Assembly: GCA_964572175.1 (NCBI GenBank) | Contig: CAZNEH010000002.1 | Span: 1,406-65,405, forward strand | Source of the DNA: an uncultured Gammaproteobacteria bacterium | GTDB lineage: Bacteria > Patescibacteriota > Patescibacteriia > UBA9570 > CAZNEH01 | Length of the DNA: 64,000 nt | Direction: 5' to 3' | Part shown: piece by piece, positions 1,807-56,119 of the stretch | How positions within the stretch are numbered: position 1 is the first letter of the stretch | How the letters are laid out: each line of letters opens with the position of its first letter | Translations under genes and position numbers: made by a program | Notes under the pieces: model-generated | Told to the model about the DNA's origin: nothing | What the model saw: only the letters and a program-made list of their open reading frames with translations | The model's database searches: none

Positions 1807-2082
1807 CTAAAGCATTGAAATAAATTGTGATGCTAACTGAACTTTCTGAAACCAGTTTTTATTTTTCTGAACGGTCTTTATTTTTTTTCTCTTAATTTGC
1901 TTAACCGGTTGAGCGTAGGCTCTCTTAATACTAGGTCCGAATAACTCGACTAATACTTTTTCCGGGGTATTAAGGAACTGTCCGATTGTTCTTATCTCCA
2001 AAGCTTTTAGAACCCTAGCGGTACGTTTTCCAATACCCGGAAGGTATTCTACTGGTAAATTAGATTTTTTGGAGTAAGACAT
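1807..2082 (-). CDS. helix-hairpin-helix DNA-binding protein (ComEA-like HhH)
   Basis: LPGIGKRTARVL is an HhH GIG motif. Small basic protein. Confidence 0.5.
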   Translation of the reverse strand: MSYSKKSNLPVEYLPGIGKRTARVLKALEIRTIGQFLNTPEKVLVELFGPSIKRAYAQPVKQIKRKKIKTVQKNKNWFQKVQLASQFISML

Positions 2083-2170: not shown

Positions 2171-2800
2171 TTAGGCGTTAAATTTTCTAATGATTCCAAC
2201 CACCTTACCCTGAATAATTACATTCTTAACTTTAAGCGGCTCATAGTTTTTATTTCTAGGTTGTAATCTAATATAATTTTTCTCTTTATGAAATTCTTTT
2301 AACGTTGCTGACCCATCTTCTAATAAGGCGACAACAATATCTCCGTTGCTTGCATAGTCTTTTTTCTCTACTACTACATAGTCTCCATCAGCAATTAAAC
2401 TTTCTACCATAGAGTCTCCCTTAACTCTTAACAAATATGTATTAGGATTTTTCACTAACTCTGGAGGTACGGCCATAGTCTCTGTCTTATCTTCTACAGC
2501 TTCGATTGGTTCACCTGCCGTAATTAATCCGGCTACTGGTAATCGATAAGCGGCGTCTTCATCAGTGTGTGTTTCTTCCATATCTGGGCTAGTGATCATG
2601 ATGTCTCTAGCCTTATTTTCACCCCTACTTAGATATCCACTTTCTTCTAATTCTTTTAAATGTTGATGAACCGTAGACTTAGAAGATACTTTTAGTTTTT
2701 TAGCTATTTCCTCTAAAGTGGGGGAATAACCGTTCTTTTGGATGTATTTAACTATAAAATCAATGATTTTCTTCTTCTTTGGGGTTAGTTGTGGAGACAT
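2171..2800 (-). CDS. lexA: LexA repressor (S24 peptidase)
   Basis: N-terminal winged-HTH. C-terminal S24 domain has the GDSM Ser nucleophile and a downstream Lys. Typical length of 209 aa. Confidence 0.9.
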   Translation of the reverse strand: MSPQLTPKKKKIIDFIVKYIQKNGYSPTLEEIAKKLKVSSKSTVHQHLKELEESGYLSRGENKARDIMITSPDMEETHTDEDAAYRLPVAGLITAGEPIEAVEDKTETMAVPPELVKNPNTYLLRVKGDSMVESLIADGDYVVVEKKDYASNGDIVVALLEDGSATLKEFHKEKNYIRLQPRNKNYEPLKVKNVIIQGKVVGIIRKFNA

Positions 2801-2822: not shown

Positions 2823-2851
2823 TGTTATCTTAAGAATACCCGAACAGAAAC
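2823..2851 (-). promoter_or_regulatory. lexA promoter (minus strand TTGACG-N17-TATTCT) with an embedded candidate SOS box GTTCGGTTTCTGTTCGG (GTTC-N7-GTTC)
   Basis: The reverse complement of 2823-2851 reads TTGACG TTCGGTTTCTGTTCGGG TATTCT. recA at 40394-40422 has the same architecture. Confidence 0.5.
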
Positions 2852-2898
2852 CGAACGTCAATAGCCACCTGTGGATAAAATGTTTATTAACTAATTAT

Positions 2899-2942: not shown

Positions 2943-3977
2943 ATGAATATTAAACAAAAACTAAAAATATTAGGCCAAGCTGCGGCTCACGACACTTGTG
3001 ATCCTGGTTGTAAATTATTAAAAGTATTAATGAGTAATGCTTGTGTTAATAATTGTAAATATTGTGCTTCTCGCCGCGAAAACAATATCGAAAGAGCAAC
3101 ATTCGAACCTGAAGAATTAGCCAGACTTTTTATGCAGCTCGTTAGAAAAAAATGGGTCTATGGAATTTTTCTAAGCTCAGCCGTCATCGGTACGACAAAC
3201 TACACCATGAAGCAAATGATCCAATGTGTATATCTAATTCGTAGTTGGGGATTTGGCGGATACATTCATCTAAAAGTTTTACCTGGCGCCGGCGAAGATA
3301 TTTTAGAGTATGCTTCTAAGTTAGTTGATCGCATGAGCGTAAACCTCGAAGCGCCTGGATCTAAATTTTTAAAACAAACCTGCCCAGACAAAAATTATTA
3401 CTCTGACCTACTCAAGCCCATGCAGTTTAATAAGACTTTAAATTTAAATCATGGCCAAACCACTCAAATGGTCGTGGGTGCCACTGACGAGCGTGATCAA
3501 GATATTTTAGATGTTTCCGACAATCTTTATTCTGACATGAAACTTAAGCGAGTTTACTATTCTGCTTTTCAACCTATTAACCAAGAGGGTCAAGGCGGGG
3601 TTCTTCCGCCATCTAGAGCCAAACGAGAATGGCGTCTTTATCAGGCCGATGCTTTATTACGATTTTATGGGTTCAACAAACAAGACTTTGTTTATAATGA
3701 TAAAAAGAATCTATACCTTACCATGGACCCCAAACAAGCCTGGGCTAAACAAAATTTATCCAAACCCATAGAAATTAACCAAGCTGATCGCGACTTATTA
3801 ATGAAAATACCCGGAATCGGCCCTAAAACGGCTGACAACATCTTAGATTTTCGTAAATCCAAGTGCATTACCCAAGATTATGAGCTAAAAAAGCTTAAAT
3901 TAAATATTCCCAAAGCTAGAGATTACCTTTTATTACAAGGGAAGATGTTGCCACAGCAGTTGACCTTTTTGTCATAA
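2943..3977 (+). CDS. radical SAM protein with C-terminal HhH motif, putative DNA repair/modification rSAM; divergent from lexA
   Basis: CVNNCKYC is the CxxxCxxC radical-SAM motif. IPGIGPKTADNIL is an HhH motif. Start is taken at MNIKQ (2943), because the ORF-track N-terminus MERGWGRG is translation of the palindromic repeat. Confidence 0.7.
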   Translation: MNIKQKLKILGQAAAHDTCDPGCKLLKVLMSNACVNNCKYCASRRENNIERATFEPEELARLFMQLVRKKWVYGIFLSSAVIGTTNYTMKQMIQCVYLIRSWGFGGYIHLKVLPGAGEDILEYASKLVDRMSVNLEAPGSKFLKQTCPDKNYYSDLLKPMQFNKTLNLNHGQTTQMVVGATDERDQDILDVSDNLYSDMKLKRVYYSAFQPINQEGQGGVLPPSRAKREWRLYQADALLRFYGFNKQDFVYNDKKNLYLTMDPKQAWAKQNLSKPIEINQADRDLLMKIPGIGPKTADNILDFRKSKCITQDYELKKLKLNIPKARDYLLLQGKMLPQQLTFLS

Positions 3978-4019
3978 AATAGTAAAACTAAAAGGCACCT
4001 TCCAACATCGGAGTCCTCC

Positions 4020-4943
4020 ATGGACAAGTTTCTTCACTTCGCCTTCGGCCGATACTCCCGCATCCGTCGAGGCATCTTCTTCTGCATCATGTTCATCCTC
4101 TTCCTCTTCACCATCTCCTACCCTTTCCTCCTGGCTGCCGCGTACTTCCTCATCCTCCTGCTCATCGACTTCAAGATCTGCCACCACTACATGTCCAAGA
4201 TGCCGTCCGATGGTCAGTGGAGTCTGAGGCGGACTGGTGCGCAGATGATCTTCGCCGAAGAAGGTCTCTCCTTCTATCGTGACGCATTCCTGCGCTATCA
4301 AAAGACAGAGCAGCATCGCATCCGTGAAGAAGGGGAGCAGCGCCAGCGTGAGGCCCGGGCTCTTCGTCTCCAGCGCCAGCAGAAGCACGAGCGTCGCATC
4401 CTCGATCTCATCGTCTTAGCCCAGGAAGTGGTCTCCAAGAAGGTCATGGTTCTTCTCCCTCCGGAGATGCAGTGGCTGTGTTCTATCGACGAGCTCACCA
4501 GCTTCCTGCAGGCTGGAGACAACGCTCGCCTGACCAGCTTCCAGACCGCTGCTCAGCGAGCTATCGAACTTTCTATTTGGCTTCAACGGGCTAGGATCGT
4601 CAAGGTCGAGGTCAAGTTCATCAAACTGGTCCGCAAGAATCACGTCCAGGAAGCTAGGGCACTGGTAGTAGAAGCTGAGAGCTACGCCGTTGCCTTGGAG
4701 CAAGCCAAGGAACTGGGTATCCGGCACACCCCAAACATCCCCATCGGCGACCTTAGAGCCTTGATCCAACACTTCGAGAAGATCAAGGGCCGCAATCGGC
4801 AGATCCTGGTCTGGCAGCAACAGATCGATCAAGGCGATCCCAGGCAGCGCAAACTTCTGACCGCGGTCCAAGCCGCAGTCAAGGGCACTGACCGTCAGTG
4901 GCGCAAGGCCGTCTACGACTTGGAGCAAGCGCTCGAAGCGTGA
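4020..4943 (+). CDS. hypothetical membrane-anchored coiled-coil protein; GC-rich island B
   Basis: Two N-terminal TM helices, then a long Arg/Glu/Gln-rich helical region. About 55% GC. GGAG SD 6 nt upstream. No terminator separates it from the upstream rSAM gene. Confidence 0.55.
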   Translation: MDKFLHFAFGRYSRIRRGIFFCIMFILFLFTISYPFLLAAAYFLILLLIDFKICHHYMSKMPSDGQWSLRRTGAQMIFAEEGLSFYRDAFLRYQKTEQHRIREEGEQRQREARALRLQRQQKHERRILDLIVLAQEVVSKKVMVLLPPEMQWLCSIDELTSFLQAGDNARLTSFQTAAQRAIELSIWLQRARIVKVEVKFIKLVRKNHVQEARALVVEAESYAVALEQAKELGIRHTPNIPIGDLRALIQHFEKIKGRNRQILVWQQQIDQGDPRQRKLLTAVQAAVKGTDRQWRKAVYDLEQALEA

Positions 4944-4950
4944 GACAAAG

Positions 4951-10072: not shown

Positions 10073-13000
10073 ATGGCCCAGAAAACAAAAAAGAACGCAT
10101 TTTACTTATCTAGCGCTGTTTTTATTATATTGCTCAGCGTTTTTTTATTTAATTATCCTCCTCAAGAAACAAAAGCATTAACTACTATTAGCTGTGTTAC
10201 TGATACTGCTGTGAGCTCAGCTAGTTATAACACAAGTCATGACCTAGCTTTTAGTGCCGGAGGAGGAAATAATACCTGTGTTTTAACTGGTGATTTTAGT
10301 GTTAATTCTGTTACAGTGAACCCTAATGTTATTTTAACTCATACCGCTGAAAACGCAGATGGAGTTAGTATTACCACGGTTGATTATTTTACTTTAGATG
10401 TTAATGCATCTATCAATGTAGATGAAAAAGGCTGTAACGGTGAGTCTGATGCTGGTGGTTGGGGTCCTAATGCTTCTAATGTTTGCGCTGAATATGATGC
10501 TGGTTGGGGAGATGGCTCTATAAATGGATGGAATGGTACTCAAGGAGCTGGTCATGGTGGAGCCGGAGGACTAGGAACAGACGCTGCTTATGATGATGGT
10601 GGTCTTACCTATGGGTCTCCTACTGCTCCAATTTTATTTGGTTCTTCTGGTGGTCCAGCCTTTGATGACGGTGGAACCTCTGGTGATGGCGGTGGGTTAA
10701 TTATATTAAATATTGGCGGAACTTTTACTCATGACGGGTCTATCTCAGCTAATGCTGGAAACGGTAGTGGAGCTGAGGGTCCAGATTCTAAAGCTTCTGG
10801 TGGTGGATCTGGTGGATCCATTAATATTACCGCTAACTCCATAACTGGTTCTGGAGACTTTGCTGCAGATGGTGGAAATGGTGGAAATGGTACTGATGAT
10901 GACGCCGGTGGTGGAGGTGGGGGCGTATCGCGGTTAAATATGCTGGTGGTGATTATAGTTTTGATTCTACGGATTTTAGCGTAGCTGGCGGAACTATTAC
11001 TGATGGAGCAACCGCTGGAGACAAGGGAACAGTTTATGTAGAAAATACAACCTCTAATGCTGTTAATATTTATCATGGCTTTACCTATGCTTCAGATTAT
11101 AGTGAAGCATCTTGGACTGTAGATTCTTCCGCAACTAACCAATATTGTAACTATGGTGACCCTGATGAAACTGATGAGGCCACTCCTTCAATTACTGTTA
11201 CCGGAGCTCTTACTTTAACCGGGACTTTTGATTGCTCAGATAGCAATGTTACTAGTTTTGATACCGCCGTTGGTACAAGCATGAGCTTAACCGCTCTTAC
11301 TTTTACTTTAGCGGCCGAAGATGTTTGGACTATGAACGATGCTGTTCCTGCTACTGTAACTTCTTCTTCTGCTATTAACTCTAATGTTGAATGGACAAAT
11401 TTAACCAGTCTTAGTATAGATAGCACTTCTAGTATTAATGCTAATGAAAAAGGATGTGCTAGCGAAGGTGCTTCTTATGGTTACTTCCCAGATACTGATC
11501 CTGGAAATTATAATGTTTGTATAAATGCAGAGCCTGCTGGTAATGGCGGTGGACAAGGTAGTGACGGAGGGTGGATTGGCTCCCAAGGGGCTGGTTTTGG
11601 TGGGGCTGGAGGACTAGGTTCTGACGCAGGTTATAGTAATGGTGGCGTGGTCTATGGCTCTAATACTGCGCCTGATTTATTTGGTTCTGCTGGCGGTCCA
11701 GCTTGGGCTGATGATCCTGGTTCTGGTGATGGCGGTGGATTAATTCGCTTAGATGTTGATGGAACTTTTACTCATAATGGTGCCCTTTCTGTAGATGGTG
11801 GATCTGGTGGAGCAGCTACTAATGCTTCTGGTGGTGGATCTGGTGGGTCAATTTATATTACGGCTAGTGAAATATCAAATGGTGCTGGCTCAGACGGTAC
11901 ATTTTCTGCTGATGGTGGCCCTGGTGGAGATGGTAGTGGAGACGATGGTGGTGGTGGAGGCGGAGGACGAATCTCTGTTAGCGCTGTAGACAGTTTTGAC
12001 AATCTAGGCACTTTAACTGCGGCTGGCGTAGCCACTGGCGGAACTGCCACTGGAACTGCGGCTGCTGGTTCTAACGGTACTCTTTATACTCTTTTTTACA
12101 CTGCTCCAGACCAACCAACTCTTAGTCCTTCAGACTCTGCTCGTAACATGGCCCTAACTAGCTCAGCTTATTCTTCAAATGGTGCTTCCCATACTTCTAC
12201 CGATTGGTATGTTTGTACAGATGGCGCTTGCGATGCTAACAGTCTAGTTTGGTATTCAGAAGACGATGCTTCTAACCTAGAATCAATAACTGTAAATACT
12301 ACTAACGGAACTTTTTCAGGAGACTTAGCTGGTAAAACAAAACTTGCTCCAGCAACTAATCATCAAATAAAAGTTCGCCATACTAATGCCGCTGGTGATT
12401 CTACTTGGAGTGTATTTACTGGTCAAAATACCATTGCTAACAATGTTCCTTCCACTCCTACTAACTCTTCGCCAACAGACGCTGCTACAGATCAATCTAA
12501 AACTCCAACAATTTCTGCCTCTTCATACTCAGACTCAGATTCAGATACTCATACTTACAGCACTTGGAATACTTATGAATCTTCAGACTGTTCAGGAAGT
12601 GAAATTTGGTCTTCTGGATCAGTTGCCGCTAATGAATCTACCACTATTAATGAAGCAAGTGGAGCTTTTTCAGACAGTCACTTAGGTGAGGCAGACTTAA
12701 AAGGACATACCCAATATTCTTGGCAAGTAAGATATGACGATGAATACGATGGTCAATCAAGTTATTCAGCTTGTACCACTTTTACTACTTTAAACACTAC
12801 TCCAGTCGCTAGTGCTGGCTCAGACCAAACAGTTATTGAAGGAACTGACGCTACCTTAACGGCTACTTCTACAGATGATGACTGGAATGACACACCAACT
12901 AACACTTGGATAGAGTCTTTAGACTCTTCAGATGGGTGTACTCTTTCTGGAACAACTGCCACTACCTCAAATAAAGAAACTTCTTACACTTGCCAATTCC

Positions 13001-13878
13001 AAGTTACAGCTGACGATGGATCAAGTGGAGAGGATACAGACACCATGACTTTAACTGTCACCGCAGACAATGATGCTCCTGCTCTAGGTTCCATGGAAAC
13101 AAGTGTTACTATCGATGAAGAAGATACTCTTCTTGCCACCTACACTGCCACAGACGCAGACACTGCTTCTCTAAGTTTTACTGCTTCAAGTTTACCAACA
13201 GGCTCAACTTTAACAGATAACTCTAATAATACTGCTACTTTAACTTGGACCCCAGACTCAACTCAATCAGGAACATACACTTTAACTCTTCAAGTCTCAG
13301 ACGGCACAACTGCAGTCACTCAAAATATTACCATCACTGTAAACGACACAGTCCAAGACGAAGAGGAAGAAGAACCAGTAAACACCATCGAAGACATTGG
13401 TCTAGTCTCTGGCACAGAATCAGGCCCAGGTATTGTCACTTTATACGACAACGACAATGAAGAATTATGTTCAGTTAGAGCTTGGAACGAGGGTGGGTCA
13501 GTTCCATTCGCAGTTCGTTTCCTAGACACTACTTACGTGGCAGTTGTAAAAAATAAAGTAGGCACTACTATTCACCTTTATGATCTAAATTGTAATATTA
13601 TTGAGAAAAAGAGATTATCACCTAAACTACATCCTCGTAACATTGTCACTAGAAACTTCTTAGGTAAAACTACTTCTCAAGAAATAGGTTTAACCTCACG
13701 AAGAGGAAGCACAGTATATGGTAAGATCTTCAGATATAATCCAAACAAAGACAAATGGTACTTACTAAGACAAAAAACATTTAGACCAGTTCCAACTGGA
13801 TATAACCTAAAGAAAACCAAAAAAGGAAATATTCTCATCAAGAAAAACAATAAAACTCTCCACAAGTGGGAGATATAA
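10073..13878 (+). CDS. giant Gly-rich cell-surface protein (paralog of 33699-37490), interrupted by a single-nucleotide frameshift in a G5 tract near 10919-10923; pseudogene, phase-variable gene or sequencing error
   Basis: ORF-track pieces 10073-10984 and 11281-13878 are one gene. Frame B is open from 10921, and its translation GRIAVKYAGGDYSF parallels GRAAIYYNDASGFT in the intact paralog. Total length is 3806 nt, which is 3n-1. Confidence 0.7.
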
Positions 13879-13970: not shown

Positions 13971-14011
13971 CCCCCTCTCCACGAAGGTGGAGAGGGGGCT
14001 AGGGGGTGAGG
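13971..14011 (+). repeat. GC-rich palindromic intergenic element, copy 2
   Basis: CCCCCTCTCCACGAAGGTGGAGAGGGGG + CTAGGGGGTGAGG. Confidence 0.7.
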
Positions 14012-15249: not shown

Positions 15250-15292
15250 TAGCTACCCTCTCCACGAAGGTGGAGAGGGGCTGGGGGAGAGG
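15250..15292 (+). repeat. GC-rich palindromic intergenic element, copy 3
   Basis: Near-identical to copy 1. Confidence 0.7.
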
Positions 15293-15326
15293 CAAGAGAG
15301 GAATCTGCATAACCTGTGGATAAAAA

Positions 15327-15366
15327 AGCTCCCTCTCCACGAAGGTGGAGAGGGCGGGGGGAGAGG
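15327..15366 (+). repeat. GC-rich palindromic intergenic element, copy 4 (tandem to copy 3, separated by a CCTGTGGATAAAA motif)
   Basis: Near-identical to copy 6 at 53235-53274. Confidence 0.7.
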
Positions 15367-15438
15367 AATTCCTAACTTTAGCCATTTTTTCTTCATGTGG
15401 ACAAAAAACTTGACAATTTTTTAGCTGGGCTTGACAAA

Positions 15439-15467
15439 AGTTGACAAATCTATTATCATCATAGGTG
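15439..15467 (+). promoter_or_regulatory. rpoB promoter TTGACA-N17-TATCAT; three tandem TTGACA hexamers at 15418-15454
   Basis: The second TTGACA has exact 17-nt spacing to TATCAT. Confidence 0.5.
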
Positions 15468-15514
15468 AAATATTAATAGCCATTAAGTGGTAATTATCAA
15501 TAAAAGGGCCTACA

Positions 15515-31936: not shown

Positions 31937-33631
31937 ATGAAAAAAGATCAAATCGCCATTTTAGACTTTGGCTCTCAATACACCCACCTCATTTGCCGTC
32001 GCTTGCGTCAACTTGGGGTGCAAGCAAAAATTTACCCGCCTACTATCGATACTAAAACTCTCCAGCGTGCCTGGGGAATTATTTTATCTGGTGGTCCCGC
32101 CAGTGTTAATAACAAGGCTATTCCCTTTAATGCCGCAGTTTTTAAGCAAAAAGTCCCTGTTTTAGGCCTCTGTTATGGTCATCAATTAATTACAGACTAT
32201 TTTGGTGGCAAAGTAGAACACGGCACTAACAAAGAATACGGACAGGCAAAAGTAAGTTTCAAAGAAGATATTTTATTAAAAGGTCTTCAGAAGAGCGAGC
32301 AGGTCTGGATGAGTCATTGGGACGTAGTCACTAAACTTCCGCCTAATTTTAAATCCCTTTCTAAAGACAATTCCGCGATCGTTAACTTAGAAGACAAGAT
32401 TTGGGGTTTACAATTTCATCCTGAAGTTCATCACACTCCAAACGGTCTAAGAATTTTTGCTAATTTTATCAAGATCTGTGGAGCAAAGAAAACCTGGAAC
32501 ATAAAATCTCTAAAAAATAAAATAATTAAAGAAATTCGTGCTACGGCTGGCAAGAAAAAAGTCTTTTTATTAGTTTCCGGAGGAGTAGATTCTACGGTAG
32601 CCTTTGCTTTACTAGAAAAAGCCTTAGGCAAAGACAGAGTTTATGGTTTTCATGTCGACAATGGCTTTATGCGCTTAGATGAAAGTAGTAAAGTAAAAAA
32701 GTTTTTAGCCAAAGCTGGATTTGACGACTTGAAGGTTTATAATGGAGAGCAAAGATTCCTAAAGGCAGTTAAGGGAGCAATAGATCCAGAAGAAAAAAGA
32801 AAAATAATAGGAGAGTTATTTGTCGAAATTGCTAACGAAGAAATGGCTAAGCTAGATATTGATAATTACTTGTTAGGTCAGGGGACTATTTACCCAGACA
32901 CTATCGAGTCTGGAGGCACCGAGCATGCCGACAAAATTAAAACTCATCATAATCGGGTCGACTTGATCCAAGAAATGATTGACCAAGGTAAAATCATCGA
33001 ACCTTTAAAAGATTTATATAAAGACGAAGTTAGAGAACTGGGTAAAGAATTAGGAATTAGTAAAGCCCTGCTAGAGCGTCATCCTTTTCCTGGTCCAGGC
33101 TTAGCAATTAGGGCATTATGTTCAAATGGCAAAGATCCTATTAAGAGCGTGGGAGTTCAAGGAGATGAACGTTCTTATAAAGAACCAGCTATTATTACAA
33201 AACTAGCTAGTTTTAAGCAACTTAACAAAAAATCAATAGCCATCACTAATAACAGTGATAAAGTAAATAGAGTATTATATTTAACTTATCCACAAAAATT
33301 AAGAAAATTAAAAACACATCCCAAGACTTTAACTAAAGATAGACTAGATTTATTGCGTCAAGCAGACGACATTGTAATGAAATTCATTAAGAGAGAAAAG
33401 ATTTCTAAAGAAATATGGCAATTTCCTACTGTTTTGCTACCTTTAGGCCAGAAAGGAGAGTCTTTAGTTCTTCGGCCAATAGAGTCTAAAGAAGCCATGA
33501 CTGTGAATTTCTACTCCATGAAAAAGGCTTTATTAAACAAATTAGTCAAAGAATTAGCTAAATTAAGCGAAATTGACTATATTTTCTACGATATCACCAA
33601 TAAACCTCCCGGCACTATTGAATGGGAGTGA
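31937..33631 (+). CDS. guaA: GMP synthase (glutamine-hydrolysing)
   Basis: GATase (GLCYGHQL), ATP-PPase SGGVDS P-loop, and the C-terminal PPGTIEWE. Confidence 0.92.
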   Translation: MKKDQIAILDFGSQYTHLICRRLRQLGVQAKIYPPTIDTKTLQRAWGIILSGGPASVNNKAIPFNAAVFKQKVPVLGLCYGHQLITDYFGGKVEHGTNKEYGQAKVSFKEDILLKGLQKSEQVWMSHWDVVTKLPPNFKSLSKDNSAIVNLEDKIWGLQFHPEVHHTPNGLRIFANFIKICGAKKTWNIKSLKNKIIKEIRATAGKKKVFLLVSGGVDSTVAFALLEKALGKDRVYGFHVDNGFMRLDESSKVKKFLAKAGFDDLKVYNGEQRFLKAVKGAIDPEEKRKIIGELFVEIANEEMAKLDIDNYLLGQGTIYPDTIESGGTEHADKIKTHHNRVDLIQEMIDQGKIIEPLKDLYKDEVRELGKELGISKALLERHPFPGPGLAIRALCSNGKDPIKSVGVQGDERSYKEPAIITKLASFKQLNKKSIAITNNSDKVNRVLYLTYPQKLRKLKTHPKTLTKDRLDLLRQADDIVMKFIKREKISKEIWQFPTVLLPLGQKGESLVLRPIESKEAMTVNFYSMKKALLNKLVKELAKLSEIDYIFYDITNKPPGTIEWE

Positions 33632-33637
33632 AAAATG

Positions 33638-33686
33638 TGCTATAATATAAGTATGAAACAAATTAAGGACAACCCTAGGGTTGTCC
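33638..33686 (+). promoter_or_regulatory. extended -10 promoter TGCTATAAT plus a 20-nt perfect palindrome GGACAACCCTAGGGTTGTCC in the leader of the giant protein gene
   Basis: Palindrome at 33667-33686, which is 12 nt before the ATG at 33699. Confidence 0.4.
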
Positions 33687-33698
33687 ATACATATTATT

Positions 33699-36600
33699 AT
33701 GGCTCAAAAAACAAAAAAGAAGGCATTTTACTTATCTAGCGCGGTTATTATTGCAATAATCAGCATTTTTTTATTTAATTACCCCCCTCAATCAGTAAAT
33801 GCAGCCGATGAATCAGTTTCTTGTAATTCTACCACCCTAGATCAAACCGCTTTAGATGCTTTAGCTGGAGATGCTGTTACTTTTACTGACGGTGGAGACG
33901 GTATTTGTATTTTTACTGGAACTTTAGGCGCTGCTTCTGTTACTGTTAACGCTGATGTTACTTTAACTCACAATGCTGAGGATGAAGATGGATTAAGTAT
34001 TACCACTGCAGATTATTTTCTCTTAAATGGAAACATAGACGTTGAGGGAAAAGGTTGTTCTGGCGGAGAAAATGGAAGCACTGATGGTCATGGTCCAGAC
34101 ACATCTACCGGGGTTTGTGCTCAAACTACTAGTGGTTATGGTAAGAGTGGTGATAGTGGAGGGGCACATGCTGGCTCTGGTGGCGAAGGACATTATGGTG
34201 GGGCAGTTCAATTAACAACTTATGGAGACTCCAACAATTCCTCTTTACTCGGATCTGGAGGTGGAGCTACCAGTAATCCAAATACTTATGGTGGAAATGG
34301 CGGCGGATTAATTGCTTTAACAATAGGAGGAACTTTAACTGTAAACGGTAGTATAAATGCTGATGGGCAAGATGGTTATGGAACAGCGAATCGTGGTGGC
34401 GGAGGATCTGGGGGTTCAATTAAAGTGACAACTACTACCTTAGCTGGGTCTGGGGCAATTTCTGTTGATGGAGGTAATGGTAATACAAATTACTCTGGTG
34501 GCGGTGGTGCAGGCAGGGCTGCAATTTATTATAATGATGCTAGCGGCTTTACTTTAACTAATATTACTGCTGCTAAAGGTTTAAAATCTTCTGGAACTAC
34601 TGGTAATGCCGAAGATGGAACCGTTGGTTCAATTTTTATCTTAGATCAAGATTCTGACATCTTAACTACTACTACTGGCTTAGAGCTGCAAGACGGGGAT
34701 GATTACACTAAATCCGAAATTACTTTTTTAGATGGTGCTCAAATCTGGTGTGATAGCTTTGCCACTCTTAATATCGGAGCCACTGGTACCTTAGCAATGG
34801 ATGATAATACCTGGACTTGTGACAGTGTTGATACTATAAATATGTCTGCTGGCACTTGGACCACATCTGGAACCAGTACCATGAGCTTTAATAAAGCAGG
34901 TAGTCAGGTAGATTGGGATATTTCTAATAATCTTACTTTAAATAACCTAACTTATAATGGAGGATATGCCGGAATCACTAGTGCTAGTGGCGGGCTTTTA
35001 ACTTTAGATAACCCCATTGATATTAATTTAGTAAATACAGATATTATTTCTAGTGTAGACTTGGACGCTACTAATCTAACTCTAGATGCTAGCTCATCTG
35101 TTAGCGCCAAAGGAACAGGTTGTGCCGGTGGAATAACTAGCAGTACCAATGGTTATGGACCCAATACCTCCACAGGAATTTGTACTCAAGGAGAAAGTGG
35201 TTATGGTAAAGGAAATGATGGAGGAGGGGCGCATGCTGGTGCTGGCGGTCGAGGAAATTATGGTGACGCTACCCAGTTAACAACCTATGGCAGTGCTGAT
35301 AATCCATCTTTATTTGGTTCAGGTGGAGGATCTAATGCTAATCCAAATAATTATGGCGGATATGGAGGAGGAAAAGTTTTTATTGATGTTACTGATACTT
35401 TGTCTGTAGCTGGAGATATAAATGCTGACGGACAAGATGGTTATGGTTCTGGTAGTCGTAGTGGCGGAGGCTCTGGAGGGGCTTTAAAAATTACTACTGG
35501 AACTTTATCTGGAGCTGGAACAATTTCTGTTGATGGTGGCAATGGTAATACAGATTACTCTGGTGGAGCCGGTGGCGGCCGAGCTTATGTTGGCTATGCT
35601 GTTAATGATTCATTTAATCTTTCTAATATTACTTCCACCAAAGGTTTAAAATCTTCTGGAACTCCTGGTAGTGCAGTTGATGGAGGCGATGGCTCTGTTT
35701 CTACCCTTGCTTACACCGCTCCAACACAACCAACTCTTAGTCCTTCAGACACATCTCGTAACATGGCCCTAACCAGCTCAGCTTATTCTTCAAATGGTGC
35801 TTCTCATACTTCTACTGATTGGTATGTTTGTACTGATGCTGCTTGTGATGCTAGTAGCCTAGTCTGGTACTCTGAAGATGATGCTTCTAACTTAGAAGCA
35901 GTAACTGTAAATACAACTAATGGAACTTTTGCCGGCACCTTGGCTGGTGAAACAAAGCTTGCTCCAGCAACTAGTCATCAAATAAAAGTTCGCCATACCA
36001 ACGCTGCTGGTGATTCTACTTGGAGTAGCTTTACCGGTCAAAGCACTCAAGCTAATAATGTTCCAAGTGCTCCTACTAATGTAGCTCCTGCAGATGCTAC
36101 CACTGACCAATCTAAAACTCCAACCCTAACTTCTTCTATATACTCAGATTCAGACTCAGATGATCATGGAGATTCTACTTGGGAAATATATGAATCTTCA
36201 GATTGTACTGGAGATAAAGCCTGGAGATCATTAGATGACTCTTCTAATTTAGAATCAATTGATACTTCTGCCGCTGGAACCTTTCTTGATGACTATGCTA
36301 CTCCAGGAGAATTAAAAGGGCACACTGAATATTCTTGGAAAGCTAGGCACGACGATGAATATTCTGGTCAATCTTCAGACTCATCTTGTACAAAATTTAC
36401 TACCTTAAACACCACTCCAACTGCCAATGCAGGCGCAGATCAAACCGCTACTGAAGGAGACGACGTAACCCTAAGCGGGTCATCTACAGATTTAGACTGG
36501 AACGACACAGTTACTGAAACTTGGATTGAATCACTTGATTCTTCAGATGCTTGTACTCTTTCTGGAACAACGGCCACTACTTCAGATAAAGAAACATCTT

Positions 36601-37490
36601 ACACTTGCCAATTCCAAGTTACAGCTGACGACGGTCAAGGTACTACAGATACCGACACTATGACTTTAACTGTCACTGCCGATAACGACGCTCCAACTAT
36701 GGGCACTCTGGCAGACGTTGTTGTAGATGAAGAACAAGCTCTTCTTATTGCCATTTCTTCTGCCGACACAGACTCATCTTCTTTAACTCTTTCAGCATCA
36801 ACCTTACCAACTGGCGCAGTCTTTACCGATAACGAAGACACCACTGGAAACATGCAATGGACTCCAACCTCAGATCAATCAGGAGCCTATGCTGTTACCT
36901 TCAGTGTTTCAGACGGCACAACTGCAGTCACTCAAAATATTACCATCACTGTAAACGACACAGTCCAAGACGAAGAGGAAGAAGAACCAGTTAACACTAT
37001 TGAAGACATTGGCTTAGTTTCTGGAACAGAATCAGGTCCTGGTATTGTCACTCTTTACGACAATGACAACGTAGAGCTATGCTCAGTTAGAGCTTGGAAC
37101 GAAGGTGGGTCAGTTCCATTCGCAGTTCGCTTCTTAGACACTACTTATGTGGCAGTTGTAAAAAATAAAGTAGGCACCACTATTCACCTTTACGATCTAA
37201 ATTGTAATATTATCGAGAAAAAAAGATTATCCCCCAAACTACATCCTCGTAACATTGTCACTAGAAACTTCTTAGGTAAAACTACTTCTCAAGAAATAGG
37301 TTTAACCTCACGAAGAGGAAGCACAGTATATGGTAAGATCTTCAGATATAATCCAAACAAAGACAAATGGTACTTACTAAGACAAAAAACATTTAGACCA
37401 GTTCCAACTGGATATAACCTAAAGAAAACCAAAAAAGGAAATATTCTCATCAAGAAAAACAATAAAACTCTCCACAAGTGGGAGATATAG
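33699..37490 (+). CDS. giant Gly-rich cell-surface protein (1263 aa), intact paralog of 10073-13878
   Basis: MAQKTKKK signal anchor, Gly-rich repeats, cadherin-like domains, shared C-terminal module. The ORF-track start at 33681 is TTG inside the leader palindrome. Confidence 0.8.
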   Translation: MAQKTKKKAFYLSSAVIIAIISIFLFNYPPQSVNAADESVSCNSTTLDQTALDALAGDAVTFTDGGDGICIFTGTLGAASVTVNADVTLTHNAEDEDGLSITTADYFLLNGNIDVEGKGCSGGENGSTDGHGPDTSTGVCAQTTSGYGKSGDSGGAHAGSGGEGHYGGAVQLTTYGDSNNSSLLGSGGGATSNPNTYGGNGGGLIALTIGGTLTVNGSINADGQDGYGTANRGGGGSGGSIKVTTTTLAGSGAISVDGGNGNTNYSGGGGAGRAAIYYNDASGFTLTNITAAKGLKSSGTTGNAEDGTVGSIFILDQDSDILTTTTGLELQDGDDYTKSEITFLDGAQIWCDSFATLNIGATGTLAMDDNTWTCDSVDTINMSAGTWTTSGTSTMSFNKAGSQVDWDISNNLTLNNLTYNGGYAGITSASGGLLTLDNPIDINLVNTDIISSVDLDATNLTLDASSSVSAKGTGCAGGITSSTNGYGPNTSTGICTQGESGYGKGNDGGGAHAGAGGRGNYGDATQLTTYGSADNPSLFGSGGGSNANPNNYGGYGGGKVFIDVTDTLSVAGDINADGQDGYGSGSRSGGGSGGALKITTGTLSGAGTISVDGGNGNTDYSGGAGGGRAYVGYAVNDSFNLSNITSTKGLKSSGTPGSAVDGGDGSVSTLAYTAPTQPTLSPSDTSRNMALTSSAYSSNGASHTSTDWYVCTDAACDASSLVWYSEDDASNLEAVTVNTTNGTFAGTLAGETKLAPATSHQIKVRHTNAAGDSTWSSFTGQSTQANNVPSAPTNVAPADATTDQSKTPTLTSSIYSDSDSDDHGDSTWEIYESSDCTGDKAWRSLDDSSNLESIDTSAAGTFLDDYATPGELKGHTEYSWKARHDDEYSGQSSDSSCTKFTTLNTTPTANAGADQTATEGDDVTLSGSSTDLDWNDTVTETWIESLDSSDACTLSGTTATTSDKETSYTCQFQVTADDGQGTTDTDTMTLTVTADNDAPTMGTLADVVVDEEQALLIAISSADTDSSSLTLSASTLPTGAVFTDNEDTTGNMQWTPTSDQSGAYAVTFSVSDGTTAVTQNITITVNDTVQDEEEEEPVNTIEDIGLVSGTESGPGIVTLYDNDNVELCSVRAWNEGGSVPFAVRFLDTTYVAVVKNKVGTTIHLYDLNCNIIEKKRLSPKLHPRNIVTRNFLGKTTSQEIGLTSRRGSTVYGKIFRYNPNKDKWYLLRQKTFRPVPTGYNLKKTKKGNILIKKNNKTLHKWEI

Positions 37491-37493: not shown

Positions 37494-37500
37494 AAAAAGG

Positions 37501-37539
37501 CCCCCTCTCCAGACGTGGAGAGGGGGTTTGGGGGTGAGG
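37501..37539 (+). repeat. GC-rich palindromic intergenic element, copy 5
   Basis: CCCCCTCTCCAGACGTGGAGAGGGGG + TTTGGGGGTGAGG. Followed by TGCTATAAT at 37548-37556. Confidence 0.7.
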
Positions 37540-39740: not shown

Positions 39741-40392
39741 TCAAAAAAATATCAGCGCCCCTACTTTAGGGGAAAAATTATATCAGGTTCGCCAAGCTCA
39801 AGAGCTATCTCTCGAAGAAATTAGCTCTAAGGTTAAAGTTAAAAAAGAATACTTAGAATATCTAGAAAAAGGTCAGTATGATTTATTGCCCAGCGCTGTT
39901 TTTGTTGAAAATTATTTAAAAGTTTATTCTCAATTTCTACATTTACCATGGGATAAAGTTAAACAAGTTTATCAAGAAGAACAACTTGCTTTTAAACAAT
40001 CTCCAGAGCCCCCTAAACAATCTGCTAAGCATCACGGCCGCCCAGCCTTACTTCTTCCTAAGTTTATAACCCTAGCCTTAGTCTTTATAATTTTACTAGT
40101 TTTCTTTATTTATTTAGGCTTGCAGATTAATAATTTTTTACAACCCCCTTCTTTAGAATTAAGCAGTCCTACAGACAATATCACTATAGATGAGCGTTTT
40201 ATCGAGGTTACTGGTAAAACCGCTCCAGAGGCCCAAATTTTGATAAATAACCAGGAAATAGCTGTCGACAAAGAGGGTCAGTTTAATGAATTAGTGTCTT
40301 TACAGCCAGGATTAAATACCCTGGAAATAACTGCTAAAACCAAACATAGTAGGGAACAGGTTGTTTATAAACAGATCGTTGTGGATAACTAA
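39727..40392 (+). CDS. RodZ-like protein (N-terminal HTH, TM segment, C-terminal DUF4115-like domain); start uncertain (39706/39715/39727)
   Basis: LGEKLYQVRQAQELSLEEIS...LEYLEKGQYDLLP matches the RodZ HTH. Confidence 0.55.
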   Translation: MTKFNQKNISAPTLGEKLYQVRQAQELSLEEISSKVKVKKEYLEYLEKGQYDLLPSAVFVENYLKVYSQFLHLPWDKVKQVYQEEQLAFKQSPEPPKQSAKHHGRPALLLPKFITLALVFIILLVFFIYLGLQINNFLQPPSLELSSPTDNITIDERFIEVTGKTAPEAQILINNQEIAVDKEGQFNELVSLQPGLNTLEITAKTKHSREQVVYKQIVVDN

Positions 40393-40393
40393 A

Positions 40394-40422
40394 TTGACGT
40401 TCGGCTTTTGTTCGGTTATGAT
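40394..40422 (+). promoter_or_regulatory. recA promoter TTGACG-N17-TATGAT with an embedded candidate SOS box GTTCGGCTTTTGTTCGG (GTTC-N7-GTTC)
   Basis: 15 of 17 positions identical to the lexA box, in the same position between -35 and -10. Confidence 0.55.
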
Positions 40423-40486: not shown

Positions 40487-41494
40487 ATGAGTAAAACAAA
40501 ACAAGACTCCCGCGGTAAGGCCGCTCAAGAGGCTATCGACCAAATTAAAGAAAAATTTGGCGAAGGTTCTATTATGAAGCTGGGCGAGGCTAAGCAAATG
40601 AAAGTAGAATCAGTTCCTACTGGTTGCCTATCCTTAGACTTAGCCCTAGGAATAGGTGGCGTCCCTCGAGGTAGGATTATTGAAATCTATGGGCCAGAAT
40701 CTTCTGGTAAAACTACCTTGTCTCAACACATTGTCGCCGAGGTTCAAAAACTAGGTGGCACCGCTGCCTTCATAGATGCTGAGCATGCCCTAGATCCAGA
40801 CTACGCAGCTAACATTGGAGTGGACACTAAAAACTTACTTATTTCTCAGCCAGATACTGGGGAACAAGCTTTAGAAATTTTAGAAACTTTAGTTCGTTCT
40901 AACGGGGTAGACGTAATCGTTGTTGATTCCGTGGCTGCTCTTACTCCTAGAGCTGAAATAGAAGGGGACATGGGTGCTTCACACATGGGTCTACAAGCTC
41001 GTTTAATGAGTCAAGCATTAAGAAAATTAGCTGGGATAGTGTCTAAAACAAATACCTCTATCATTTTTATTAATCAGATTAGAATGAAGATTGGAGTCAT
41101 GTTTGGTAATCCGGAAACAACTACTGGTGGAAATGCTTTAAAGTTTTATTCCTCAGTACGTATCGAAGTTCGCAGAGCCGCTCAAATTAAAAAAGGAGAC
41201 CAAATCATTGGTAACCGAACCAAGGCTAAAGTAGTAAAAAATAAAGTTGCTGCTCCTTTTAGAACTACTGAGTTCGACATCATGTATAACGAAGGAATTT
41301 CTATTGCTGGCGACATGCTAGACACAGGCGTCCAATTTGGAGTTATTAATAAATCAGGTAATACCTACACCTATAAAGATAAAAAATTAGGAGTAGGTCG
41401 AGAAAATTCTAAAACTACTTTAAAAGCAGATAAAAAACTATTAGAAGCAGTTCGTAAAGAAGTTATAGAAGTAGTTGAAAAAGCAGAAGAATAG
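40487..41494 (+). CDS. recA: recombinase RecA
   Basis: GPESSGKTT Walker A, L1/L2 loops, full length. Confidence 0.97.
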
Positions 41495-53234: not shown

Positions 53235-53274
53235 AGCTCCCTCTCCACGAAGGTGGAGAGGGCGGGGGGAGAGG
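53235..53274 (+). repeat. GC-rich palindromic intergenic element, copy 6
   Basis: CCCTCTCCACGAAGGTGGAGAGGG + CGGGGGGAGAGG. Confidence 0.7.
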
Positions 53275-53284
53275 AAAGAGGAGA

Positions 53285-56119
53285 CTATTTTAAAAGCTTT
53301 TTCAAATATTGCCCAGTATAAGATTCTTTTACTTTAGATACTTCTTTAGGTGTTCCTTGAGCCACGATGTACCCACCCTTGTCTCCACCATCAGGCCCCA
53401 TATCAATAACATGGTCCGCACATTTAACTACTTCTAAGTTATGCTCTACGATTAAGACGCTATTTCCTTTATCTACAAGTCTATTTAATACATCTAATAA
53501 TTTTTTAACATCAAAGAAGTGCAGGCCAGTAGTTGGCTCATCCAAAATATATAGAGTTTTACCAGTGGCTCGTCTAGAAAGCTCAGTCGCCAGCTTAACT
53601 CTTTGTGCTTCACCGCCAGAAAGTGTAGTCGCGCTTTGGCCTAAGCAAATATATTCTAAGCCAACCTCTCGCAAAGTTTTAAGTTTTTCTTTAATTGGTG
53701 TTTGATCAGCAAAAAAGTAAAAAGCTTCTTCCACAGTCATATCTAAAACATCAGCAATAGTTTTTCCTTTATAATGAATTTCTAAAACCTCTTGGTTAAA
53801 GCGTTTTCCATGGCATTGATCACATTTTACATAAACATCAGGCAAAAAGTGCATCGCAATTTTCTTAGCCCCATCACCTTGGCAAGCTTCACAGCGCCCG
53901 CCCTTAACATTAAAGGAAAAGTGACCAGCTTTGTATCCACGCATCTTTGCTTCTGGAACTTGGGTAAATAAATCACGAATATAAGTAAATACTCCAGTAT
54001 AAGTCGCGGCATTAGATCGAGGAGTTCGACCAATCGGGCTTTGATCAATATGAATAATTTTATCTAAATTCTCCAGCCCCTTCATCTCCTTATGCTTTCC
54101 TGGTAAATCCTTAGCTCCGTGGAAGTGGGCCGCCAAAGCCTTAGCTAAAATGTCGGTAATCAAGGTAGATTTTCCAGATCCAGAAACACCAGTTACACAA
54201 ACCAGGCAGCCTAATGGAATTTCCGCATTAACTTTTTTCAAGTTAAATTGCTCCGCCTGTTTAATAGTAATTTTCTTCTTATTACCCTTGCGATATTCCT
54301 TAGGACATTTAATTTTTTCTTTTCCAGATAAGTAAGCCGCAGTTAAAGATTTTTTATCTTTTAATATTTGCGGTAAAGTTCCTTTAGCCACTATTTTCCC
54401 TCCATATTTACCAGCTCCTGGGCCAACATCAATTACGTAATCAGCAATTCTAATGGTATCTTCGTCATGCTCTACCACAATTACAGTGTTTCCTAGGTCA
54501 CGAAGCTTTTCTAAAGTTTTTAATAGCCTTTGATTGTCTCGTTGGTGAAGGCCAATAGACGGTTCATCTAAAACATAAATTACTCCAGTTAGGGCTGCTC
54601 CCATTTGAGTGGCTAAACGAATTCTTTGAGACTCTCCACCAGCCAAAGTATTAGCTGAGCGGTTTAAACTTAAATAAGTCAAGCCCACATCTTGTAAAAA
54701 ACTTAATCTTTTTTTAACTTCCTCCATTAGTTGGCTAGCAATTTTTTGTTCCCTAACTCCTAGCTTTAATTTTTTGAAAAATTCTACGGTTTCATCAATA
54801 GAGATGCTAGTAATTTCAGAAATATTTCTCTCTCCTACAGTTACCGCTAAATATTCATCCTTTAAACGACATCCTTTGCAAACCGGACAAGTGTAAGTCC
54901 GCATGTATCGTTCAATTTCAGATTTTAAATACTCAGAATCAGTTTCCTTGTAGCGTTTTTCTAAATTAGGGACCACTCCTTCGTATTTAGCCCAAGTTTG
55001 TTTTCCTTTATTTACCTCACCAATCTTATTTAGATCATAAAGTTGTTCTCCAGTGCCATATAAAACTTTTTCTAAGTCTTTTTTCTTTAAATCTTTTACT
55101 GGAGTGCGAGTAGAAAAACCATTTTCTTGAGCCATGGCTTCTAAAGAACGCATTAAATATGTTTGTTGCGCAGAGTTTCTAGACCAAGGTCGAATTGCTC
55201 CCTCAGCTAAGCCTAATTTTTTATTAGGCATAATTAAGCCCTCATCTAATTTTAATTTTGTTCCTAATCCAGCGCATTCTCCGCAGGCCCCATGAGGACT
55301 ATTAAAGGAGAAATTTCTAGGCTCTATTTCTGGTAAACTGATTTGGCAATGTGGGCAAACCCAGTGTTCAGAATAAACTTTATCTAGTTCTTCATCAGAG
55401 TTATGAATTACTACAGAGCCGTTAGCTAGGTCTAAGGCAGTTTTTATAGATTCCTCTAAACGAGGTTTAGATAACTTTTTACCAGTTACCATCTTGTCGA
55501 CTACTAATTCTATGGTGTGAGGCTTATGTTTATCTAAATTTAAGTCTTCTGCTTCATTAATAGTATAAAAAAGACCATCGATCCGCACATGGGTGTAACC
55601 AGCTTTACGTGCTTCATCGATAGTTTTTTTATGCTGCCCCTTTTGTTCTTTAATTAATGGAGAGATTACTAAAAATTGAGTGTCTGCTTTAATCTTTAAA
55701 ATTTTATCCACCATTTGCTTGGGAGTTTGCCGAGAAATTTTTTCTCCGCATTCTGGACAATGGGGGACACCTACTCGAGCATATAAAATTCTAAATAAGT
55801 CATAAATCTCAGTCATAGTTCCTACAGTAGAGCGAGGATTGTTGGTAGTAGTTTTTTGATCAATGGCAATCGCTGGTGATAAACCAGTGATGTGATCTAC
55901 GTCTGGTTTATCCATTACACCTAAAAACTGCCTAGCATAGGCAGATAAACTTTCCACATATCTACGTTGACCTTCAGCATAGACAGTATCAAACGCTAAA
56001 GATGATTTTCCTGATCCAGAGATTCCAGTAACAACTACCAGTTTGTCACGGGGAATTTCTACATCAATATTTTTTAAATTGTGAACACGAGCGCCCTTGA
56101 TTGAGATTTTATTAGACAT
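53285..56119 (-). CDS. uvrA: excinuclease ABC subunit A
   Basis: Two ABC ATPase modules, zinc fingers, 944 aa. Confidence 0.97.

Follow-up and report, generated by a model that had tools for sequence, protein, structure and literature searches.

A question raised by this locus is which protein reads the direct repeat found in the promoters of its lexA and recA genes, and in which code. The window, by which we mean the whole stretch of 64,000 nucleotides that was analysed, comes from an uncultured bacterium that GTDB places in the Patescibacteriota. Among the motifs known to be bound by LexA are GAAC-N4-GTTC, in Firmicutes and Actinobacteria, and the GTTC-N7-GTTC of Alphaproteobacteria (PMC8565304, PMC4951493). 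The initial annotation of this DNA assigned the repeat to the alphaproteobacterial type, and proposed that a CPR-like lineage uses a direct-repeat operator instead of a palindromic one. The analysis reported here favours another reading of the letters, where the repeat at lexA and recA is very probably the LexA operator of this patescibacterial (Kerfeldbacteria-like) lineage, with TTCGG-N6-TTCGG as the recognised unit.

The two genes, together with their promoters and candidate operators, occupy the following positions in the window:

2171-2800, minus strand: lexA, 209 aa, a winged helix-turn-helix (wHTH) domain followed by an S24 autopeptidase (Pfam LexA_DNA_bind and Peptidase_S24)
2833-2861, minus strand: lexA promoter, with the -35 TTGACG at 2856-2861, a 17-nt spacer formed by the operator and the -10 TATTCT at 2833-2838 (from the sequence and a promoter scan), reading TTGACG-TTCGGTTTCTGTTCGGG-TATTCT
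2840-2855, minus strand: candidate lexA operator, TTCGGTTTCTGTTCGG, an exact match to the TTCGG-N6-TTCGG direct repeat with its 11-bp period
40394-40422, plus strand: recA promoter, with the -35 TTGACG, a 17-nt spacer formed by the operator and the -10 TATGAT, reading TTGACG-TTCGGCTTTTGTTCGGT-TATGAT
40400-40415, plus strand: candidate recA operator, TTCGGCTTTTGTTCGG, again an exact match
40487-41494, plus strand: recA, 335 aa (Pfam RecA, 2.7e-138)

Both promoter sequences exist as they were quoted in the initial annotation, which also located the recA promoter correctly; its lexA coordinates (2823-2851) are displaced by 10 bases from the promoter that the scan places at 2861 to 2833 on the minus strand. 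The claimed identity of 15 out of 17 positions holds for the 17-mer GTTCGG-N5-GTTCGG, and 24 positions out of 29 are the same when the whole promoters are compared. The placement of a direct repeat between the -35 and the -10 at both genes is equally confirmed in the sequence, and the same layout recurs in the lexA profile built from other species.

How far these two sites stand out from chance depends on the pattern that is counted. The bare GTTC-N7-GTTC is not above chance level within the 64-kb window (3 matches against 1.34 expected, a number reached by 15 of 100 shuffles), and its third match, at 24303, sits within a coding ORF. A search for the 17-mer with up to two mismatches was as uninformative as this bare count. 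A 26-nt degenerate pattern combining promoter and repeat is found at lexA and recA only, with 0.00 matches expected and no shuffle reproducing it, and the exact TTCGG-N6-TTCGG likewise occurs nowhere else in the window. When a position weight matrix derived from the lexA promoters of other species was run over the same DNA, recA (29.2 bits) and lexA (24.0 bits) came out as the top two positions, far ahead of the rest. Two further matches of 15 bits, at 13803 and 37415, were discarded as operators: they are identical 19-mers that lie antisense at the 3′ ends of two large paralogous ORFs. These ORFs, both on the plus strand (11281-13878, 865 aa, and 33681-37490, 1269 aa), have near-identical ends over at least 150 nt, and the false match appears twice because they have this paralogous C-terminal module in common.

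The regulator encoded next to the first site has all the features of a LexA protein. It scores 198.9 bits against the NCBIfam model TIGR00498, whose equivalog cutoff is 110.95, and combines an N-terminal winged-HTH (PF01726, 1e-17, residues 4-65) with a C-terminal S24 peptidase domain (PF00717, 2.4e-32). The protein aligns over its full length with the solved LexA structures 3K2Z and 1JHH, the Thermotoga LexA (3K2Z) being the nearest. Both the Ala95-Gly96 cleavage site and the Ser130/Lys168 dyad are invariant across 33 LexA homologs; judging from these residues, this LexA is intact and competent for autocleavage. The recognition-helix region, SSKSTVHQHL, resembles what we take to be its Bacillus counterpart, SSSTVHGHL. 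Among the best 120 homologs, judged by their names, every named one belongs to the Patescibacteria or to an unclassified “bacterium”, with Candidatus Kerfeldbacteria as a recurrent name.

What this family of repressors has in front of its own genes was addressed with the lexA loci of 80 species-representative genomes (51-72% LexA identity), from which 79 upstream regions could be analysed. The 200 nt upstream of each lexA were scanned for enriched dyads with no motif assumed, and segments from the same loci served as controls. Of the regions upstream of lexA, 62% contained TTCGG-N6-TTCGG, compared with 2.6% of the control segments, and the top dyads all describe this repeat, which bears out the proposal that the lineage uses a direct repeat and not a palindrome. 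An exact copy occurs in 50 of the 79 regions, in 49 of them in the sense of lexA, so that the direct-repeat site is conserved upstream of this gene across the Patescibacteria sampled. The cross-species consensus reads TTGAC-N-TTCGGTTTTTNTTCGG-(T)TA, and the profile, TTGAC-N-operator-(T)TAnnnT, has the repeat filling the 17-nt spacer between -35 and -10 as it does in the window. The presence of the site tracks LexA similarity: it was found in 16 of 17 species at 60% identity or more, in 16 of 25 at 56-59% and in 18 of 37 at 51-55%. In many of the 29 regions that do not carry it, the upstream DNA is coding and lexA seems to sit inside an operon. The substitutions in the closest relative (L210, 94% LexA identity) adjoin the -35, the TTCGG units and the -10 but leave all of these intact.

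The same alignments correct the motif. Across 47 aligned lexA operators the two TTCGG units are invariant while their neighbours vary: a G precedes the first repeat in 4 operators, the second in 7 and both in a single one. GTTC-N7-GTTC is absent from the enriched dyads of the unbiased scan over the 79 upstream regions. In the window, the G before the first TTCGG is simply the closing base of the -35 hexamer TTGACG. The match to the alphaproteobacterial box is thus coincidental and particular to this genome; on the evidence of the aligned sites, GTTC-N7-GTTC is not this lineage's LexA code.

Nine RecA relatives with 76-83% identity all keep the gene order ftsK, rodZ-like, recA. The promoter-operator stands before recA in only two of them (L205 and L207), whose intergenic gaps are the long ones; in the other seven, where the gaps measure 8-37 nt, no site was found. 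The identical architecture claimed for recA consequently holds in the window but is not general among relatives. The two site-bearing recA loci come from the same genomes as two of the lexA loci (L016 and L012), their modules at recA being very similar to the ones at lexA there. Read from this distribution, close relatives have gained and lost the control of recA. The likeness of the two promoters in the window most likely arose when one promoter-operator cassette was copied inside the genome, since recA carries the module in only some relatives and there resembles the lexA promoter of its own genome; such copying would also account for the G, otherwise rare, in front of each TTCGG at the two window sites.

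To see which genes stand behind the operator beyond these relatives, metagenome sequences were scanned with the pattern TTGAC-N0-2-TTCGGNTTTNNTTCGG. The scan matched at least 120 loci, which were classed by their first downstream ORF; because it required the site, the counts given below, taken from the matches listed, show which genes lie behind sites and not the regulated fraction of each gene family.

LexA: first downstream in 33 of the at least 120 loci matched, with 43 of the listed loci holding lexA
Protein of about 85 aa followed by a Y-family polymerase: 23 loci; 7 of 7 polymerase partners tested carry IMS and IMS_C
NrdR: first downstream in 5 loci (L089, L098, L105, L110, L149)
DUF3276/PurA-like protein of about 80 aa, putatively single-strand-binding: 5 loci (L109, L152, L171, L186, L194)
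Zn-ribbon/HNH-repeat gene: 3 loci, followed by recA in L081 and L173
Stand-alone Y-family polymerase: 2 loci
Radical SAM protein (best match TIGR03916): 2 loci
PHP (DnaE2-like) protein: 1 locus
ComM-like protein: 1 locus

These genes make up a predicted SOS-type set centred on translesion synthesis. The commonest target other than lexA among the matches listed is the uncharacterised protein of about 85 aa (for example in L083, L084, L101, L117, L119-L123 and L133), whose gene overlaps or directly precedes that of the Y-family polymerase and whose sequence has invariant P, G and W residues. DUF6504 was reached weakly by 3 of its 23 members (best 4.3e-5), and no solved homolog was found for the family; the protein may be an accessory subunit of the translesion polymerase. 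Unusual as SOS targets are nrdR and the DUF3276/PurA-like gene. In the matches listed, nrdR, which encodes the regulator of ribonucleotide reductase, lies 200-300 nt downstream of the operator-promoter. The regulon described for Patescibacteria in 2017 is reportedly small and includes nucleotide-reductase control, with which the presence of nrdR here is consistent.

In other lineages (L081, L125 and L173, and also L108, where about 1.5 kb separates the site from the recA downstream of it), an operon begins with the operator-bearing Zn-ribbon/HNH-repeat gene and has recA in second place. This arrangement is a predicted route to SOS control of recA that differs from the one in the window.

Could the repeat nevertheless be the alphaproteobacterial box, either because the same recognition code is used or because an alpha-type LexA was acquired laterally, as reported for Acidobacterium? 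Both window sites do read GTTC-N7-GTTC, and the alphaproteobacterial box, known also from Acidobacterium capsulatum, shares with them the direct repeat, the 11-bp period, the TTC core and the placement at the lexA and recA promoters (PMC8565304, PMC4951493). Here, however, the G before TTC is unconserved (before both units in 1 of 47 operators, and missing with its dyad from the enriched set), whereas the GG that follows TTC, which is no part of the alphaproteobacterial box, is invariant. Besides, the nearest relatives of this LexA are patescibacterial, and no alphaproteobacterial names appear among its best 120 homologs. Taken together, these observations make an alphaproteobacterial-type box very unlikely.

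It seems just as improbable that the site serves a regulator other than LexA, such as some other DNA-damage or replication-stress factor that controls lexA. At least one more factor does probably act on these promoters, as indicated by a second conserved element, TTATCCACA, to which we return below. Yet the site is found most consistently at lexA itself, autoregulation is a hallmark of LexA, and the remaining targets (translesion polymerases, recA, radical-SAM repair genes) belong to the classic SOS repertoire. The literature also assigns the direct-repeat motif of Patescibacteria to LexA, according to a statement in a citing paper (PMC7739468). Still less credit can be given to the idea that the repeat has no regulatory meaning, one promoter having been copied from the other with the repeat as a spacer feature or a product of chance. 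Copying within the genome is indeed likely, and the window shows no excess of the bare 4+4 motif; but copying in one genome cannot yield an invariant TTCGG with variable neighbours across 50 species, nor can it explain the repeat before unrelated SOS-type genes in the metagenome matches listed. We therefore regard the lexA/recA repeat as a LexA operator, although LexA as the protein that binds TTCGG-N6-TTCGG is inferred from the conservation and placement of the site.

The mechanism that this LexA operator suggests is a simple one. The recognised unit, TTCGG, is repeated directly with an 11-bp period (TTCGG-TTTTTN-TTCGG), which is about one helical turn, so that the two units lie on one face of the double helix. 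LexA has a flexible linker that should permit its DNA-binding domains to lie head-to-tail, and the two domains of a dimer would take up this arrangement on the direct repeat. Seated on the spacer, the dimer would exclude the RNA polymerase and thereby repress both lexA, as autoregulation, and recA. Upon DNA damage, RecA filaments would trigger the self-cleavage of LexA at Ala95-Gly96 by the Ser130/Lys168 dyad, after which both promoters would open.

How many genes would this switch govern within the window? Two other candidates that the initial annotation had suggested checking, uvrA and uvrD, have no site in the 64 kb analysed:

53285-56119, minus strand: uvrA, with an ordinary-looking promoter and no TTCGG repeats
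60235-62280, minus strand: uvrD-type helicase gene, with an ordinary-looking promoter and no TTCGG repeats

Since both go without the site, either the regulon is small or our view of it is incomplete. As for the core of an SOS system, the operator is present at lexA and, in the window, at recA, where its occurrence elsewhere is patchy; before error-prone polymerase genes it is found in the lineage but not in the window, which has only a short ORF reminiscent of a polymerase thumb. Two more genes near lexA deserve attention in this context:

1807-2082, minus strand: ORF of 91 aa directly after lexA, with a weak IMS_HHH_1 match (E 2.4e-4, below the cutoff)
2943-3977, plus strand, divergent from lexA: radical-SAM/HhH gene, with NCBIfam TIGR03916 as its best match (E 2.9e-94, 316.6 bits, under the cutoff of 343.5)

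The model TIGR03916 bears the name “putative DNA modification/repair radical SAM protein”. The divergent layout of lexA and this gene is kept in the closest relative, and no radical-SAM homolog was found within 3 kb of lexA in any of the 80 species loci. A promoter scan of the control region found no consensus promoter on the plus strand for the radical-SAM gene; TGTGGATAAAAT contains TAAAAT, a possible -10, but without a -35. In two metagenome loci (L169 and L176) the radical-SAM homologs have an operator-promoter of their own. We consider the radical-SAM gene a probable SOS target, and it is plausible that it shares the control region of lexA. Within the 64 kb, the predicted regulon would consist of lexA and recA, possibly joined by the radical-SAM gene.

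The 91-aa ORF is also called as a gene in another locus (L211), and its match is confined to the thumb (HhH) of Y-family polymerases. The ORF may be what is left of a translesion polymerase gene that was linked to lexA and truncated beside a GC-rich island. A 337-aa gene that follows lexA in L210 was rejected as its counterpart, with zero similarity between the two, and is probably the GC-rich phosphorylase island read in antisense.

Two islands of about 58% GC (600-1800 and 3950-4950) flank the lexA/radical-SAM block, which has about 36% GC. A phosphorylase (PNP_UDP_1) is encoded in the first, at 698-1723, and a protein of 307 aa without any Pfam match in the second, at 4020-4943; both have long ORFs on the two strands. 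The first island is seemingly present in the closest relative too.

The second conserved element of these promoters is a 9-mer that matches a perfect DnaA box, and that accompanies both sites in the window:

2870-2878, minus strand: DnaA-box-like 9-mer at lexA, TTATCCACA (TGTGGATAA on the plus strand), 14 bp upstream of the operator and 8 bp upstream of the -35
40380-40388, plus strand: DnaA-box-like 9-mer at recA, inverted (TGTGGATAA), 11 bp before the operator and sharing bases with the stop codon of the rodZ-like gene upstream

The window holds four copies of this 9-mer against 0.43 expected, the other two being at 15315-15323 and 33286-33294. In the same unbiased scan that revealed the operator, TTATCCACA turned up before about half of the lexA genes and in about 1% of the controls. 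It accompanies 40 of the 50 upstream regions that bear the operator and none of the 29 others, matching the consensus at a conserved position: in the species loci (L001-L080) it lies about 20-30 nt upstream of the lexA operator, mostly ending 13-14 bp before it, with its centre near -48. Perfect copies number 124 in the 1.3 Mb of collected loci, where about 10 would be expected, and are concentrated just upstream of lexA. Among the metagenome matches listed, the box goes, in either orientation, with 17 of 33 lexA promoters against about 2 of 74 other targets. At the equivalent place of the recA promoters, L205 has TTATTCACA and L207 has TTATCCACA; in the recA promoter of L207, as in six lexA promoters, the 9-mer is located between two tandem operators. 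The closest relative, L210, spares it while its flanks change.

Outside the window, the 9-mer is probably no mere element of divergent promoters: no radical-SAM homolog lies within 3 kb of lexA in the 80 species loci, and the box-bearing recA promoters of L205 and L207 have an upstream gene on the same strand. A precedent for such a neighbourhood exists in E. coli, where DnaA and LexA both repress uvrB, recN and dinJ, and where the DnaA box adjoins or overlaps the LexA box of these SOS promoters (PMC6015884). The pairing in E. coli concerns downstream SOS genes, whereas here the putative box stands at a fixed distance before the -35 of lexA and sometimes of recA. No paper pairing “DnaA box” with Patescibacteria was found in the searchable literature, and no dnaA gene was found in the collected loci with an approximate B. 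subtilis DnaA query. The DnaA-box partner of the LexA operator may be a new element. We tentatively put forward, as a possibility that is rather doubtful at present, a composite module where a DnaA box in either orientation, some 7-8 bp upstream of the -35 of lexA or recA, adjoins the LexA operator and would let DnaA tune the master SOS genes.

The intergenic regions of the window have repeats of other kinds as well. Between genes and at their ends there are GC-rich hairpins of one family, CCTCTCCAC-GAAG-GTGGAGAGG, after which GGGGGAGAGG often comes (2905-2929, 13974-13995, 15257-15278, 15332-15353, about 37495-37530 and 53240-53261), with four perfect copies against 0.00 expected. These hairpins look like REP elements or terminators, and one of them is located between the DnaA-like box and the start codon of the radical-SAM gene. 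In the 350-nt region upstream of rpoB, a DnaA-like box is flanked by two of the hairpin repeats, and three TTGACA hexamers stand in a row at 15380-15470 (cTTGACAattttttagctgggcTTGACAaaagTTGACAaatc).

With regard to novelty, the direct-repeat SOS operator in a CPR-like lineage was overstated as a discovery. According to a statement in a citing paper (PMC7739468), Sanchez-Osuna, Barbe and Erill (Environ Microbiol 2017;19:3465) had already reported that LexA recognises a direct repeat in Patescibacteria, so that, as far as this statement goes, the core finding was known. Phylum, regulator, direct repeat and a lexA-centred SOS response are all the same in both cases, a likeness drawn from the citing statement. 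The palindromic box of Firmicutes and Actinobacteria, CGAAC-N4-GTTCG, differs in having its half-sites 9 bp apart, instead of a direct repeat with 11-bp spacing; its half-site GTTCG overlaps the TTCGG unit described here, which hints that a Gram-positive half-site could have been retained in a new arrangement. Another direct repeat that evolved independently is the Balneolaeota LexA site, TTACACATATTTTWTACATA, unrelated in sequence and from a different phylum (PMC7739468). The Balneolaeota regulon comprises lexA, recA, translesion polymerases and a radical SAM protein, and the SOS-type set found here matches those of other phyla down to this radical SAM protein (PMC7739468).

For the organism, these observations mean that the genome carries what looks like a working minimal SOS switch, made up within 64 kb of lexA and recA only. 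For the lineage, the corrected motif to be used in scans of Patescibacteria is TTCGG-N6-TTCGG, as the alphaproteobacterial GTTC-N7-GTTC would miss almost all of the relatives' sites. The picture of the regulon gains a main target other than lexA, the protein of about 85 aa with its Y-family polymerase, to which nrdR, the PurA-like gene and the radical-SAM gene are added. If the tentative pairing of DnaA box and LexA operator were true, the replication status of the cell would be coupled to the set-point of the damage response at lexA and recA themselves, going beyond the downstream genes concerned in E. coli; one promoter would then serve both the replication initiator and the SOS repressor in reduced genomes that have very few regulators.
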